20,355 bases of DNA from Arcobacter sp. (GTDB lineage Bacteria > Campylobacterota > Campylobacteria > Campylobacterales > Arcobacteraceae), in NCBI GenBank assembly GCA_965662175.1, contig CBFIGT010000034.1:1-20355 (forward strand), given 5' to 3'. This document shows positions 10,198-20,355 of the stretch, one piece after another (the stretch's first letter is position 1; every line of letters begins with the position of its first letter). The notes under the pieces are model-generated. The model was given only the letters and a program-made list of their open reading frames with translations, did not search any database and was not told the DNA's origin. A program made the translations under genes and the position numbers.

Positions 10198-10232
10198 AAA
10201 AAAAGGGGAGGTAAATTTTACCTCCCCTTTTT
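10198..10232. terminator. Bidirectional intrinsic terminator
   Basis: Near-palindrome AAAAAGGGGAGGTAAA-T-TTTACCTCCCCTTTTT between the convergent rhodanese and ALDH genes. Confidence 0.9.
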
Positions 10233-10248
10233 ATTTTATATACAAATA

Positions 10249-11643
10249 TTATAAAACAGGTGATTTAATAACCATCATTTTTTCATTTGTACACTCTTCC
10301 ATACTATGGTGAATTCCACCCATTCCAAGTCCAGAAGCTTTTGCACCACCAAATGGCATCCAATCAACTCTAAATGCAGTGTGATCATTTACCATAACAG
10401 CAGTACCATTTAATCTTTTAACAGCTCTAAGAGCTGTATCAATATTTTTTGTAAATACAGCAGCTTGGAAAGATACCTCTAAAGCATTTGCTCTATCAAA
10501 TGCTGATTCAATATCACTGTAAGAGTATATAATAACAACCGGTCCAAATACCTCTTTAGTAGATACTAAAGCATCATCAGCTGGATTTAAAATAACTGTT
10601 GGTTCAAAACATGAATCAGAGATTCTTTTTCCACCTGTTAAAATTCTTCCACCTTTGGTAACAGCTTCATTAACCCACTCTTCAACTCTATTAACTTCAT
10701 TATGATTAATAAGTGGTCCAACTTCAGTTTTAGGGTCTAATTGATCTCCCACAACTAATTTTGAAGCATAATCAGATAATCTTGAAGCTACTTCATCAAC
10801 AATTGATTCATGTACATATACTCTTTGAACAGATACACAAACTTGACCAGCATGGTAAAAACCACCCTTACCAATTGATGGAATTAAGTCATCAATATCA
10901 GCATCTGCTTCAACAATAACAGGTGCAACTCCACCATGCTCTAAAGCAACTCTAGTTCCATTTGCAACTTTAGAGTTTAAGTACCAACCAACAGCACCTG
11001 AACCAATAAATGTTAAAAAGTTAACTTTTGGAGAAGTTGCTAATAATTCACCACCATGTCTATCACAAACAACAGCTTGTGCCCAACCTTTTGGTAATCC
11101 AGCCTCTTCTAAAATCTCAACTAATCTAACAGCACTCATTGGAGTTTGAGTAGCTGGTTTTATTACAACAGGACATCCTGTTGCAATTGCTGGAATAACT
11201 TGGTGAACAGCTAAGTTAAATGGGTGGTTAAATGCTGAAATTGCAGCTACCACTCCAATTGGTTCTTTAAAAGTATAAGCCATTCTATTTGCACTTGAAG
11301 CTGTGTGACCCATAGCAATCTCTTTACCTTCTTGAGCACTTAATGCTTCAATAGCAAGTTTAACACCATTTATAGCTCTTTGAATCTCAACTTTAGAATC
11401 AACATAAGGTTTTCCACCCTCAGAAGCACAAAGAATTGTTAACTCTTCAACTTGTGAAGACATAATCTCTGCAACTTTTTCTAAAATTTCAACTCTTTTG
11501 TATTTTGGTAAAGCATTTTTATGATCTAAAAAAGTATCACTTGCTAAATCAATCGCAGCTTGAACTTCTTCAAAAGATGAAAAAGGAACAGTTCCTACTA
11601 CTTTACCATCAAAAGGTGATGTAACTTCTATCGTACTACTCAT
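10249..11643 (-). CDS. NAD(P)-dependent aldehyde dehydrogenase (ALDH21/RL0313-like; candidate succinic semialdehyde dehydrogenase)
   Basis: 'PIGVVAAISAFNHP', 'IKPATQTP', 'FIGS', catalytic 'LEHGG' and 'GQVCVS', 'EVFGPV', 'FRVDWMPFGG'. Confidence 0.9.
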   Translation of the reverse strand: MSSTIEVTSPFDGKVVGTVPFSSFEEVQAAIDLASDTFLDHKNALPKYKRVEILEKVAEIMSSQVEELTILCASEGGKPYVDSKVEIQRAINGVKLAIEALSAQEGKEIAMGHTASSANRMAYTFKEPIGVVAAISAFNHPFNLAVHQVIPAIATGCPVVIKPATQTPMSAVRLVEILEEAGLPKGWAQAVVCDRHGGELLATSPKVNFLTFIGSGAVGWYLNSKVANGTRVALEHGGVAPVIVEADADIDDLIPSIGKGGFYHAGQVCVSVQRVYVHESIVDEVASRLSDYASKLVVGDQLDPKTEVGPLINHNEVNRVEEWVNEAVTKGGRILTGGKRISDSCFEPTVILNPADDALVSTKEVFGPVVIIYSYSDIESAFDRANALEVSFQAAVFTKNIDTALRAVKRLNGTAVMVNDHTAFRVDWMPFGGAKASGLGMGGIHHSMEECTNEKMMVIKSPVL

Positions 11644-13303
11644 TATCTTCTCCCTCTAATAATGTTTCAGCATTTTTTACAAGGTCATTTAAAATAGCGT
11701 GATTTAATGAATAATCAACAGCTAAATCAATTAAATGTACACCTTTACCGTTAACACATTTTTCTAATGTTTCTGTAAACTCTTCACAAGATGTTGGTCT
11801 ATGACCTGTTGCACCATAAGATTCAGCATATTTAACGAAATCAGGGTTATTATAATCAAGTCCAAATGTATCGAATCCCATACCTGTTTGTTTCCATTTA
11901 ATCATTCCAAATGCATTGTCATTTAAAATAATAACAGTTAAATCAAGTCCTAATCTAACAGCTGTTTCCATCTCTTGTGAGTTCATCATAAATCCACCAT
12001 CACCACAAACAGTTACAACTTTTTTCTCAGGGTGTACCATTTTTGCAGCCATTGCTGATGGAAGTCCAGCTCCCATAGTAGCTAAGGCATTATCTAATAA
12101 TAGTGTATTAGGTCTAGCACATTTATAGTTTCTTGCGAACCAAATTTTATAAACACCATTATCTAATGTTAAAATATCTTCAGGCCCTAAAATATCTCTA
12201 ATAGTTTTTACAGCTCTTTGAGGTAAAATTGGGAATCTCATATCACCGAAATATTTAGTTAATCTTTTGTTAATAGTTTTAATAACTAATTTATAAAACT
12301 CAAAATCCCAATGTGCTTGTGGAGATAAAGCTCTATTTAAATCTTCAATAGTTCCAGCAATATCACCAACAACATCTAAGTGTGGGAAATAAGTTGGATC
12401 AACTTCTGATGGGAAAAAGTTTACATGGATAACTTTAGTAGCATCAGGACCCTCTTCCATAAAAAATGGTGGTTTTTCAATAACATCGTGACCAACATTA
12501 ATAATTAAATCAGATGTTTCAATTGCAGCGTGAATAAAGTCAGCTGATGATAATGCAGCTGTTCCAAGGTTTAGTTTATGATTACCATCAACAACACCTT
12601 TACCCATTTGAGTTGTGAAGAATGGAATTCCTGAATCATTAACGAAATCAGTTAGTGCATCACCAATTCTATTTCTATTTGCACCAGCACCAATTAGGAT
12701 AAGTGGTTTTTTTGCTTGTTCTATCATTCTAACAGCTTGTAAAATAGTAGTTTTATCAGCTCTTGGATATCTTACATGTTGTACAGGATATACATAATCA
12801 GTAGTTGATTGCTCTTCTGCAATATCTTCAGGTAATTCAATATGAACAGCACCTGGTCTTTCAATTGTTGCTAATTTAAAAGATTCTCTAACCATTGATG
12901 GAATGTTATTAGCATTTACAACTTGTTTAGCATATTTAGTCATTGGTTTCATCATACCAACGATATCAATAATTTGGAATCTACCTTGTTTAGATTTTTT
13001 GATTGGTTTTTGACCTGTAATCATCATCATTGGCATACCACCAAGTTGTGCATAAGCAGCACTTGTAGCAAAGTTAGTAGCACCAGGCCCAAGAGTAGAA
13101 ATACAAACTCCAACTTTACCTGTTAATCTTCCATATGTTGCAGCCATAAAACCTGCACCTTGTTCATGTCTAGTTAAAATTAATTTAATGTTTGATGTTC
13201 TTAGTGCCTCTAAAAAGTCTAAGTTCTCTTCACCAGGGATTCCAAATATATACTCAACGCCTTCGTTTTCTAGCGCTTTAACAAATAAGTCAGATGCCTT
13301 CAT
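11636..13303 (-). CDS. ThDP-dependent enzyme of the acetolactate synthase large-subunit-like family (candidate 2-oxoacid/2-oxoglutarate decarboxylase)
   Basis: 'FGIPGEENL', 'RHEQGA', 'TLGPGATN', ThDP motif GDGGFMMN...ILNDN; overlaps the ALDH start by 8 nt. Confidence 0.9.
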   Translation of the reverse strand: MKASDLFVKALENEGVEYIFGIPGEENLDFLEALRTSNIKLILTRHEQGAGFMAATYGRLTGKVGVCISTLGPGATNFATSAAYAQLGGMPMMMITGQKPIKKSKQGRFQIIDIVGMMKPMTKYAKQVVNANNIPSMVRESFKLATIERPGAVHIELPEDIAEEQSTTDYVYPVQHVRYPRADKTTILQAVRMIEQAKKPLILIGAGANRNRIGDALTDFVNDSGIPFFTTQMGKGVVDGNHKLNLGTAALSSADFIHAAIETSDLIINVGHDVIEKPPFFMEEGPDATKVIHVNFFPSEVDPTYFPHLDVVGDIAGTIEDLNRALSPQAHWDFEFYKLVIKTINKRLTKYFGDMRFPILPQRAVKTIRDILGPEDILTLDNGVYKIWFARNYKCARPNTLLLDNALATMGAGLPSAMAAKMVHPEKKVVTVCGDGGFMMNSQEMETAVRLGLDLTVIILNDNAFGMIKWKQTGMGFDTFGLDYNNPDFVKYAESYGATGHRPTSCEEFTETLEKCVNGKGVHLIDLAVDYSLNHAILNDLVKNAETLLEGEDNE

Positions 13304-16347: not shown

Positions 16348-17625
16348 CTATTCAAAATAAACATCTTTTTTTATATTATTTGCCATTTTCCAATAATCAA
16401 CTTGAGCCTTACAACTATCTTTTCCAAGCCATTTTTTTACATAATTAGCACCATTATACATTTGTGATTGTTTTATAGGATCAAATATCCTATATGTTTT
16501 ATCATTTCCAACATGTGATTGATAGGCAAAATTTCCATAATTTGAAGCTGGATTAAAATCTATCAAATAACTTTCAAAAAAAGCAGCTCCAATTCTCCAA
16601 TCAAGCCCTAAATTTTTTACAAAATAGCTAGCTACTAATTGTCTATTTCGATTACTTAACCAACCTGTTGTCTTAAGTTCAACTATACTTGCATCAATAA
16701 CATCTACTTTTGTATTTCCATCTAAAAAGTTTTGAAGCTCTTTTTTATCATCTTTAAAATTAAAATCAATTCCTTTTAATCCTGATTTTAAAAACAGTTT
16801 ATTTCCACTATTTTTCATAACTAAATAAAAGAAATCTCTCCATAGCATCTCGAAATATATCCAATAAGAAGAGTCACTTTTTGTAGTTTGTTCTTCTTTT
16901 TCTTTTATTTTTTCATAAATTCGTCTTGGACTTATACATCCAATTGCTAAATATGGAGAAAATTTAGTTGAATTATCAAATCCACTCATTTCATTTCTTG
17001 TGGTTTTATACTCATGAATAAAATCCATATAATAATCAACTCTTTTTAAAGCTTCATATTCTCCACCTTTAAAAACTATTGCATTGGGATTTTTTATCTC
17101 TATTTTAGGAATATCTAAAGGAAGTGATTTATACTCAATATAGTTTTTAGAAGAGATATTGTTTATGGGTTTAAGAATTTCTAATTTCTCAGCTTTTTTA
17201 CGAAATCCCGTAAAACTTTTTGTGTAATCAAAATAAAAGGGTTCGATTAATGTTTGAGAGAAATATGACCGGTGTTGATACTTTTTTAATTTATCCTCAA
17301 ATATTTTCTCTTCTGTTCCAACCTCTTGGTCAAAATAAACAGTTATCTCATATTTTTTTGATAGTTCTTCTAAACTTGTTTCAAGATTATCTACAAAAGA
17401 GAGATTAATATTATATTTTAAAAGATTTTCTTGAAGATTTAGTAAAGACTCTTTTATGAACCTTTCCCTAAAAACTTCACATTTTTTAAAACCATAAATT
17501 TCACCCTCTAGGTTTTCCAAACTATAAAGACCTAATACCTCATCACTCTCATTACAAGCTTTATGCAAAGATATATTGTCGTCTATTCTAAGATTATTTC
17601 TAAATACTATTATTGATAATTTCAT
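16348..17625 (-). CDS. DASH-family cryptochrome/photolyase
   Basis: 'FRNNLRIDDN', 'FKGGE..AL.R', 'YKTTRN', 'STKFSPYLAIGCISPR', 'FEMLWRDFF', 'SNRNRQLVAS' and 'VGND'. Start at ATG 17625 preferred over TTG 17640. Confidence 0.92.
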   Translation of the reverse strand: MKLSIIVFRNNLRIDDNISLHKACNESDEVLGLYSLENLEGEIYGFKKCEVFRERFIKESLLNLQENLLKYNINLSFVDNLETSLEELSKKYEITVYFDQEVGTEEKIFEDKLKKYQHRSYFSQTLIEPFYFDYTKSFTGFRKKAEKLEILKPINNISSKNYIEYKSLPLDIPKIEIKNPNAIVFKGGEYEALKRVDYYMDFIHEYKTTRNEMSGFDNSTKFSPYLAIGCISPRRIYEKIKEKEEQTTKSDSSYWIYFEMLWRDFFYLVMKNSGNKLFLKSGLKGIDFNFKDDKKELQNFLDGNTKVDVIDASIVELKTTGWLSNRNRQLVASYFVKNLGLDWRIGAAFFESYLIDFNPASNYGNFAYQSHVGNDKTYRIFDPIKQSQMYNGANYVKKWLGKDSCKAQVDYWKMANNIKKDVYFE

Positions 17626-17682
17626 AACAAATATTAACAAGATAACTCATTTTTAATATGAATTTTTTGTTAGTTTATATTT

Positions 17683-18929: not shown

Positions 18930-19182
18930 TCATTTATTACTAGTGCTCAGAATATCTTTAAGTTCTATTATTTTTTTTTCTAATTCTTCTAATTCATTTG
19001 AACAAATGTCAAAAACCGTTTCAGAATCTATATCAACATAATGAAATAGCATCCAATTTATCAAGTCCATCATCTGAATCCAAAAAATCATCACCTGATT
19101 TTATTGTTTTAAATCTTCTCTTTATTAGTTTAATACTTTCTAAAATAAAATCTATTAACTCCAAAGTTGTTGATTTATCCAT
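18930..19182 (-). pseudogene. HepT-like (DUF86/HEPN) toxin pseudogene with an internal deletion and frameshift
   Basis: ATG 19182 overlaps the MNT stop. The first frame gives MDKSTTLELIDFILESIKLIKRRFKTIKSGDDFLDSDDGLDKLDAISLC* (stop 19035-19033). A different frame from 19043 gives HYVDIDSETVFDICSNELEELEKKIIELKDILSTSNK* (stop 18932-18930). Both halves look like DUF86 and the middle is absent. Confidence 0.85.
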
Positions 19183-19465
19183 AAATCACTTCTTTTTGAA
19201 TTTGATTAAATATTGCACCATTACTTCTTTTGTGTTTGTGCATCAAATCTATTTTTTTATTGTAAAGTTCTTCAAGATATACCCATAAACCAGATATGTT
19301 TTTAAAGGTTTTGTTTTTAAACTCCACATAGATATCAATATCGCTGTATTCTGTTTGCATATCTTTTGCATAACTTCCAAAAAGTCCAATTTTATCAACT
19401 TCAAAAGTATTTTGAATATAACTTTTTTCTTTTGAAAGCTTTTCTAAAATATCTTTTTTTGTCAT
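19175..19465 (-). CDS. Minimal nucleotidyltransferase (MntA-type adenylyltransferase antitoxin)
   Basis: 96 aa with an exact GS-X10-DxD motif (GSYAKDMQTEYSDID), 'LEELYNKKIDL' and 'IQKEVIY'. Confidence 0.92.
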   Translation of the reverse strand: MTKKDILEKLSKEKSYIQNTFEVDKIGLFGSYAKDMQTEYSDIDIYVEFKNKTFKNISGLWVYLEELYNKKIDLMHKHKRSNGAIFNQIQKEVIYG

Positions 19466-19486
19466 TTGAACTCCTTTTTTGGATTT

Positions 19487-19495
19487 ATTATATCA
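19487..19495 (-). promoter_or_regulatory. Extended -10 promoter of the MNT-HEPN operon
   Basis: Minus strand TG-A-TATAAT, then an AAGGAG RBS and ATG 19465. Confidence 0.7.
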
Positions 19496-19534
19496 AAATA
19501 TTGGGACTTTTAATGATGTTTAATGAGCTTTAAA

Positions 19535-20355
19535 TCATCTCAAAATCTTATTTACTAGTTCTTTGTAATCTTTTACACAATCATAAATAATGTTTTCATC
19601 AGATAGCGATTCGAAATATTTTTTTGCATATTGTATTTTCAAATCTTCCGCACCTTTTAGTTGAAGCTCTTCACAATCCCCTTTTGTCTCAGCTATAAAG
19701 TAGATATTTTTTTTATCTGCTTTTTCAAAAACTACTGCCCAATCAGGATTATAACCACTTTTCAAAATTGGCATTGGTATCTTAAAATCATTAGGAAGTT
19801 TTGCATATACTACTATTTGCCCACTATCCATATTTTTTGCAAAATCTCTTTCTACTTTTGAGTCTGATTTCAAATAATCATATATATGTTTTTTTACCTC
19901 AATTGTGTCACCTGATAAATTACATTTAAAATGAGGAATTGTAAAAATATCAGTTTTATACTCCTCATTTGTTTTGAAATATTTTATTCCACTTATTAAA
20001 AGTTTTGCTTTTTGTGTGTTTATTATATGAGCAACTTTTATTATAAAATCTTCAGGATTTGATTTAAACATTGCAAACTTATCTTCTCTTATTTCACTTA
20101 AAATTGCAACGGCTGTTTTTCTTGTAAGTTGTGTATTTTTTACAATCTCTCCTATTAAGTCATATTTTGTATAACCTAATTCATAATCCATCAATTCATA
20201 ACTATTTTGTGATTCTTCCATCATATTTTTATCTTTTGATAAATCACCTACTTCCAAAAGAGATTTTTGTGTACCTGTTGTGATTTTGACTTTTACTTTT
20301 GTCACTTCCAAAGTTTGATTTATAGTTTCAATACTATTTGTTTTCAAATCTTCAC
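19535..20355 (-). CDS. res: Type III restriction-modification system Res (endonuclease) subunit, C-terminal part (partial)
   Basis: The frame stays open to the window edge. Motifs 'DSKVERDFA', 'VYAKLP..FKIP.P', PD-(D/E)xK nuclease 'YNPDWAVV...IYFIAETKG' and 'E..KI.YAKKYF'. Confidence 0.88.
   Translation of the reverse strand, partial: EDLKTNSIETINQTLEVTKVKVKITTGTQKSLLEVGDLSKDKNMMEESQNSYELMDYELGYTKYDLIGEIVKNTQLTRKTAVAILSEIREDKFAMFKSNPEDFIIKVAHIINTQKAKLLISGIKYFKTNEEYKTDIFTIPHFKCNLSGDTIEVKKHIYDYLKSDSKVERDFAKNMDSGQIVVYAKLPNDFKIPMPILKSGYNPDWAVVFEKADKKNIYFIAETKGDCEELQLKGAEDLKIQYAKKYFESLSDENIIYDCVKDYKELVNKILR

Follow-up and report, generated by a model that had tools for sequence, protein, structure and literature searches.

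Organization of the gene pair

The 20,355-nt contig CBFIGT010000034.1 of an Arcobacter sp. (assembly GCA_965662175.1) codes on its minus strand for a thiamine diphosphate (ThDP)-dependent enzyme and an aldehyde dehydrogenase (ALDH), a gene pair that we consider here as a candidate route from 2-oxoglutarate to succinate. The whole contig is referred to as the window and is contig C34 of a host genome that is 94% complete. The pair and its local signals are as follows, in window positions.

11636..13303, minus strand: ThDP-dependent enzyme, 555 aa, predicted 2-oxoglutarate decarboxylase of family PRK08322/NF006187 (from model scores and residues)
10249..11643, minus strand: aldehyde dehydrogenase, 464 aa, ALDH21-related, predicted NADP+-preferring succinic semialdehyde (SSA) dehydrogenase (SSADH; from structural relatives and residues)
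11636..11643, minus strand: stop/start overlap ATGAGTAG, 8 nt (from open reading frame coordinates)
10200..10232, no strand: bidirectional intrinsic-terminator-like hairpin (from folding and T runs on both sides)

Both open reading frames (ORFs) and their overlap are as an earlier, sequence-only reading of this DNA had described them. The protein motifs that it cited are present (looked up by script for some and in the translations for the rest), and no ORF recognizable as ilvH, ilvC, or acetolactate decarboxylase is found among the window ORFs, as it had held. A purine-rich run precedes the ALDH ATG at the overlap, and the two genes may well be translationally coupled there. The hairpin is strong (−21.9 kcal/mol, z −5.3, 0/200 shuffles equally good), with T runs on both flanks and U7 following it on the minus strand. 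The pair had been credited with a strong terminator of its own; the strength stands, but the scanner also lists the hairpin on the plus strand, and it is thus common to the pair and a convergent rhodanese gene. A promoter scan of the window gave nothing above chance (18 sites vs 23 in shuffles). Sequencing runs provided contigs only, mostly from relatives at 85 to 95% identity, which span both genes and are uninformative as to strand, expression level, or a single transcript.

The ThDP-dependent enzyme

The closest named relatives of the ThDP gene are in the Arcobacteraceae (91% to Arcobacter iocasae). Among hidden Markov models (HMMs) the enzyme is matched best by PRK08322/NF006187, at 864 bits against a cut-off of 509, with the next model at 440; it falls below the cut-offs of the AlsS models (440, 394) and of the acetohydroxyacid synthase (AHAS) model (389, cut-off 538), and HDVIEK replaces the RFDDR arginine segment of the latter. 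As a comparator for the Microcystis 2-oxoglutarate decarboxylase (KGD) we used 20 metagenome loci fetched by a motif from the KGD paper; 19 of them agree with that paper at each of the 25 residues compared, and the single protein whose source was looked up is named Microcystis aeruginosa. The KGD-like protein scores 874 bits on the PRK08322 model, and the window enzyme is 45.8% identical to it, vs 32% to the host IlvI. The ThDP/Mg and catalytic residues are kept (E47, D435, D462, and M410, equivalent to E50, D435, D462, and M410 of the M. aeruginosa enzyme, MaKGD). In the available text of the KGD report, 2-oxoglutarate docked on a model of MaKGD contacts Q254, V382, K386, A408, L467, and K471 (PMC10418658); K386, A408, and K471 are identical in the window enzyme, L467M is conservative, and V382N and Q254S differ. 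K386 is kept in 96/96 and K471 in 95/96 members of the window's sub-branch, and neither lysine is present in four named AlsS rows. Cyanobacterial KGD, the nearest characterized relative, is described there as strict for 2-oxoglutarate among six oxoacids, with no activity reported on branched-chain or aromatic 2-oxoacids (PMC10418658).

Two trees bear on the position of the enzyme. In a FastTree phylogeny built from 129 sequences, the window branch groups with OgdA with support of 0.98. The set comprised the window enzyme, 24 references, and 104 representatives of near-full length out of 150 returned, after removal of fragments and of seven rows that were long or fused. An IQ-TREE analysis of 44 hand-picked rows strongly supports both the window's branch (100/99), which is marked by a Phe-Gln pair in the active-site loop, and AlsS (100/100), with little resolution at the deep split; the OgdA grouping appears in 122/200 bootstrap trees and an AlsS grouping in 0/200. 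Path lengths from the window enzyme are 2.1 to OgdA/KGD, 3.1 to AlsS, and 3.4 to 3.5 to AHAS. Taken with approximately unbiased (AU) tests, given below, the trees indicate a relative of OgdA on a branch of its own and not a proven orthologue. The likeness to cyanobacterial 2-oxoglutarate decarboxylase drawn by the sequence-only reading holds at the level of the PRK08322 family, with the correction that the window enzyme is on another sub-branch than OgdA and has an altered active-site loop.

A predicted structure of the enzyme has a mean predicted local distance difference test (pLDDT) score of 76.7, with values below 50 in the substrate loops 99-110, 406-409, 467-477, and 479-484, and a Foldseek search with it recovers only the common AlsS/AHAS fold (template modeling [TM] score of 0.91 to Bacillus subtilis AlsS). 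The closest solved sequence, PDB 13BB (513 bits; depositor name, acetolactate synthase), was not among the Foldseek matches. We note that 13BB has the window-branch motifs and a Met at the K386 position.

The aldehyde dehydrogenase

The best solved relatives of the ALDH are 5KF0, 5JRY, and 5J6B, each named only as an aldehyde dehydrogenase, and moss ALDH21 (5MZ5); the score against moss PpALDH21A1 is 305 bits. The catalytic residues E235 and C269 are present, and R89, Y263, and R425 align with PpALDH21 R121, Y296, and R457, the ligands of the SSA carboxylate (the 5MZ5 numbering offset of 18 was counted by hand and is consistent for all three). This triad is kept in 82/83 partner-type ALDHs, the one exception being truncated at R425. 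The solved relatives and the triad bear out the earlier assignment to an ALDH21-related group.

T165 occupies the place of Glu187 of NAD+-dependent ALDH5, so that the KPATQTP segment does lack the coenzyme-selecting Glu, as previously noted. This would favor NADP+, which the enzyme probably prefers, judging from these residues. Both T165 and R195 are found in 23/23 close orthologues and are variable in the group at 45 to 75% identity; R195 corresponds to R228 of moss ALDH21. The ALDH is not of the SsaD type (PRK09406, 225 vs cut-off 730; 27.5% identity to an SsaD-type protein) or of the GabD family (TIGR01780, 329 vs 646), and it is under the cut-offs of PhnY (310/636), SafD (293/700), archaeal GAPN (272/780), and methanogen lactaldehyde dehydrogenase (401/650). 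The parallel drawn earlier with the cyanobacterial decarboxylase-SSADH pair therefore stands for the arrangement, a PRK08322 decarboxylase followed by an ALDH, and fails for the identity of the ALDH, which is outside the SsaD family.

Pairing and gene context in other bacteria

An ALDH gene follows the ThDP gene in 68/79 loci from Campylobacterota, Proteobacteria, Bacteroidota, Calditrichota, Nitrospira, and others, and 5 of the 11 remaining loci end at a contig edge. Another 38 loci have an ALDH of a second type as the partner, and the one of these that was searched (alphaproteobacterial) scores 570 bits against moss ALDH21. Natural ThDP-ALDH fusions of 1016 to 1019 aa occur with either ALDH type (P0121 and P0149). 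A glutamate dehydrogenase gene is in the flank of 7/79 ThDP loci, and it is directly upstream of a Dinoroseobacter member of the other sub-branch.

Several further arrangements were seen among ThDP-family members. These include a cNMP (cyclic nucleotide)-binding domain (P0126) and an N-terminal epimerase domain in an algal transcriptome (P0244). Neighbors in four loci (L129, L130, L132, and L138) include an ALDH and a tripartite ATP-independent periplasmic (TRAP) transporter (Leisingera), an FMN-binding glutamate synthase family gene (Streptomyces), gdhA (Dinoroseobacter), and a position near dctA (Rhizobium pRL12).

Other genes for the same steps in the host

The host AHAS large subunit is encoded separately, on contig C88 (PRK08527, 1038 bits, cut-off 905), and is followed by an ORF that resembles a small subunit. 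The ThDP gene is thus not the only candidate AHAS gene in the genome, and branched-chain amino acids can be made without it. The sequence-only reading had also raised the question of separate ilvIH and oorDABC genes, and both are present; with sucCD present too, the pair is not needed in this host to pass the 2-oxoglutarate step. The genome further has a 1197-aa POR_N frame and aceE; the search for a SucA-like E1 gave none, with one weak 605-aa match. Acetolactate decarboxylase (PF03306) was not found in the 94%-complete genome. Neither a PF00282 decarboxylase nor gabT has a match in the host, the best for gabT being an ArgD-like protein at 31% identity; these two negatives argue against a γ-aminobutyrate (GABA) shunt here and leave the ALDH with no evident source of SSA other than the ThDP enzyme.

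A crude optimal-codon proxy ranks the ThDP gene at the 95th percentile among 1608 long ORFs, the ALDH at the 66th, oorA at the 37th, and sucD at the 7th, which hints weakly that the ThDP gene is highly expressed. A PhyH-family dioxygenase gene is located close behind sucCD (L007:1934-2668) in the host and six relatives that were read (L108 to L113), and a dynamin-like gene pair follows frdAB. Elsewhere in the window, we take the ORF at 16348-17640 to be photolyase/cryptochrome-like, and those at 19175-20355, by the contig edge, to be a small ORF resembling a nucleotidyltransferase and the end of one resembling a type III restriction endonuclease.

Distribution relative to sucD and oor

In a sample of the phylum, the ThDP gene is present in 13/15 Arcobacteraceae and 1/285 genomes elsewhere. 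A family sample of 151 Arcobacteraceae genomes has the ThDP gene in 108, sucD in 95, and oorA in 142; both the ThDP gene and sucD are found in 54 genomes, the ThDP gene only in 54, sucD only in 41, and neither in 2, where 16 would be expected. The ThDP gene is thus in 54/56 genomes without sucD, and the two lacking both genes are drafts. Coenzyme A (CoA) transferases were considered as fillers of the sucCD gap and rejected: PF02550 is in 0/151 genomes and PF01144 in 18/151, and only 10 of the 56 genomes without sucD are among the latter; family III CoA transferases and thioesterases lay outside this search. Among genomes lacking sucD, PF01144, and PF02550, 45/46 have the ThDP gene.

Where both genes are present, the distance from the ThDP gene to sucD is at most 3.2 kb in 18/54 genomes, at most 7 kb in 23/54, and at most 25 kb in 29/54, and the near pairs are always co-oriented; the two are far apart in 6/54 and on different contigs in 19/54, the host included. 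The order frdAB-dynamins-ThDP-ALDH-sucC-sucD was found in 3/18 loci read. Genus g16 is represented by five genomes, and in four of them (G015, G034, G049, and G068) there is no POR_N match over the cut-off, no OorB, and no SucA, aceE is kept, and the ThDP gene is 251 to 263 nt behind sucD. These contexts in relatives point to the 2-oxoglutarate/succinate node. The same four genomes appear to be without pyruvate-ferredoxin oxidoreductase (PFOR) and 2-oxoglutarate oxidoreductase (Oor) and retain a two-subunit CoA transferase along with pyruvate dehydrogenase, a combination unusual for Campylobacterota.

The available text of two genome reports states that no succinyl-CoA synthetase was found in Arcobacter butzleri (PMC2147049, 2007) or Arcobacter thereius (PMC5495459, 2017), and a 2024 omics table (PMC11334517, supplement 3) has no A. 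butzleri entry in its sucCD rows and gives SucCD for Campylobacter jejuni and a CoA transferase for Helicobacter pylori at the same step. In A. butzleri, Abu_2149 (acetolactate synthase large subunit) and Abu_2148 (ALDH) are between ung and lemA, as is the pair in relatives, and are taken as orthologues by synteny only. Both proteins were measured by liquid chromatography-tandem mass spectrometry in the 2024 study, and its accessible data show a modest fall in a cemR mutant alongside tricarboxylic acid (TCA) cycle enzymes (PMC11334517). One relative without sucD (G072; L161:10189-11598) has the ALDH in the lemA-ung slot with the ThDP gene gone and a PF01144 CoA transferase present.

ALDH copies linked to gabT

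The ALDH and gabT searches covered the same 151 genomes, and gabT matches occur in 22. A second ALDH copy is located within 7 kb downstream of gabT on the same strand in 15 of these (hand count), and the remaining 7 are drafts with gabT on a different contig. The five duplicate loci that were read have the order gabT, TRAP transporter, a UspA-like ORF, and ALDH. All five aminotransferases scanned exceed the TIGR00700 GABA transaminase cut-off (562 to 581 vs 507) and score best on GABA models, above a 2-aminoadipate model. The usual product of GABA transaminase is SSA. The gabT-linked and ThDP-linked ALDHs are 100% identical as proteins in 3/3 genomes compared, and one ALDH protein is thus encoded behind both a predicted GabT and the ThDP enzyme. 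For the substrate of the ALDH, these duplicates are the strongest evidence.

An island of 11 to 14 kb between two ALDH copies of 99.8 to 100% DNA identity (L157:4066-16525, L158:1856-17247, and L159:1769-15302) contains three regulatory-looking ORFs, gabT, the TRAP transporter, and the UspA-like ORF. The window has one ALDH copy and no island, a difference compatible with acquisition or deletion of the island through recombination between the two copies, or with gene conversion.

Proposed route and alternatives

The pair is a real operon, and we consider it likely that its ThDP enzyme decarboxylates 2-oxoglutarate to SSA and that the ALDH, as an ALDH21-related SSADH, oxidizes SSA to succinate, probably with NADP+ and thus yielding NADPH. 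In this form the sequence-only reading of the pair is supported, most strongly by the comparison of the 151 Arcobacteraceae genomes. The gene pair, the two protein families, their conserved residues, and the context in relatives are observed; the two substrates, the cofactor, and any flux are inferred. Such a route would need no CoA, ferredoxin, or Fe-S cluster and would make no ATP. In the host it would run in parallel with Oor and SucCD. In relatives it would be the sole recognizable route from 2-oxoglutarate to succinate in the five genera that lack sucCD, and also in the four genomes, all of one genus, that lack Oor, with SucCD then turning succinate into succinyl-CoA. The O2-insensitive alternative role put forward by the sequence-only reading is a conjecture: Oor and SucCD are both retained in the host, and the family has lost sucCD more commonly than Oor.

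Several observations weigh against this interpretation. The host has Oor and SucCD and needs no bypass, the sucD pattern amounts to a few events since the genomes are related, and the genomes without Oor are four drafts from a single genus. The PRK08322 cut-off discriminates imperfectly (B. subtilis clears it, and an AlsS cut-off is in turn cleared by the KGD-like protein), the join to OgdA is recovered in 122/200 bootstrap trees, and AU tests reject neither OgdA (P = 0.46) nor AlsS (P = 0.27). The V382N and Q254S changes are at docked contacts, and the His-Gln of the KGD loop is Phe-Gln. We found no assayed member of the sub-branch in the literature. Both carboxylate-binding arginines of the ALDH are also in 8HAP and, we presume, in GAPN-type enzymes, and thus mark an anionic aldehyde and not SSA alone. 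In the accessible parts of the literature, the likely A. butzleri orthologues are unchanged under paraquat (PMC11334517), and A. butzleri is described as without succinate oxidation or growth on acetate or citrate, data not shown (PMC2147049), so that closure of the oxidative cycle cannot be taken for granted.

The chain length of the substrate is the point at which an alternative has most room, although we think it improbable that the pair acts mainly on another 2-oxo-diacid, most plausibly 2-oxoadipate with glutarate semialdehyde as the intermediate and glutarate as the product, or on C4-C6 oxo-diacids in general. The carboxylate-binding residues do not fix chain length, the enzyme departs from OgdA in its active-site loop and at two docked contacts, and GabT-family enzymes also accept 5-aminovalerate. 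A C5-to-C4 step is indicated by the links to sucCD, frdAB, and glutamate dehydrogenase and by the complementarity with sucD and Oor loss, and the preference of the linked aminotransferases for GABA models over 2-aminoadipate argues in the same direction.

It is less plausible still that the ALDH is an SSADH while the ThDP enzyme is an Ehrlich-type 2-oxoacid decarboxylase making another aldehyde that the ALDH also clears. A less polar substrate might be accommodated by the Phe that replaces His in the loop, and one GABA island has a YqhD-like alcohol dehydrogenase (PRK15138, below cut-off); however, the two conserved lysines match docked 2-oxoglutarate contacts of MaKGD, and wherever the pair occurs the ThDP gene tracks sucD loss, with gabT in only 22/151 genomes and not in the host, which also has no PF00282 decarboxylase. 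The least credible reading, a FAD-independent acetolactate synthase or other carboligase with the ALDH as a separate neighbor, has the database name, the AlsS-like fold, the AU result, and the depositor name of 13BB on its side, and founders on the scores below both AlsS cut-offs, the separate ilvIH, the missing acetolactate decarboxylase and AlsS-type residues, the 0/200 bootstrap trees, and the pairing and fusion with an ALDH, which call for an aldehyde product.

Taking 2-oxoglutarate as the substrate, we further suggest, with somewhat better than even confidence, that the 2-oxoglutarate node is modular in this family, with the pair replacing SucCD in five genera (including A. butzleri, by synteny) and the Fe-S oxidoreductase in the lineage without Oor and PFOR. 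By the same argument the whole Phe-Gln PRK08322 branch, with thousands of members in many phyla labeled acetolactate synthase, would be 2-oxoglutarate decarboxylases associated with two types of ALDH21-related SSADH.

Implications

The pair offers two candidate genes for the step missing in A. butzleri in 2007, missing in A. thereius in 2017, and blank in the 2024 table. If the assignment is true, Campylobacterota would have a further way past this step beside SucCD and CoA transferase, a widespread acetolactate synthase annotation would be corrected, and metabolic models would gain a CoA-free, Fe-S-free source of NADPH. The chemistry is already known from cyanobacteria, which limits the surprise; no paper placing a 2-oxoglutarate decarboxylase/SSADH bypass in Campylobacterota was found among the matches listed. 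For methanotrophs, whose assayed members of this branch we did not find in the literature, SSADH activity in extracts is interpreted as a GABA shunt in the available text of one report (PMC5802761), and another, as far as its available text goes, only mentions the enzyme (PMC6373157).

Comparison with known systems

The closest parallel is the cyanobacterial OgdA/KGD and SsaD pair (Synechococcus PCC 7002 A2770/A2771 and Microcystis MAE_06010), as described in the available text of PMC5160925 and PMC10418658. The decarboxylases belong to the same HMM family (874 vs 864 bits), share the PGEENL motif, K386, A408, and K471, precede an ALDH gene, and are annotated as acetolactate synthase. They differ in that the window enzyme is only 46% identical and on its own sub-branch (100/99), carrying Phe-Gln and DNGVY where OgdA/KGD has His-Gln and DVGAH; its partner ALDH belongs to a different family, at 27.5% identity to an SsaD-type protein, and the host keeps Oor, with SucCD often kept in the family. 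AlsS (B. subtilis 4RJJ and Klebsiella pneumoniae 1OZF) has the same fold (TM of ∼0.9) at ∼31 to 33% identity, in contrast to its HMM cut-offs, which the window enzyme does not reach, and its PGAKI, His-Gln, and Gln, which are PGEEN, Phe-Gln, and Lys here, with no budA.

Relative to GabT/GabD catabolism, the ALDH in relatives ends the gabT-TRAP-uspA unit in the place of GabD, and the host is without gabT. Moss ALDH21 (PpALDH21A1, PDB 5MZ5), an NADP+-dependent SSADH, shares the triad equivalents, the lack of the coenzyme Glu, and an Arg at what we take to be the R228 site; the window ALDH is more distant from it than is the alphaproteobacterial partner (305 vs 570 bits), is bacterial, and would be fed by a decarboxylase or, in relatives, by GabT.

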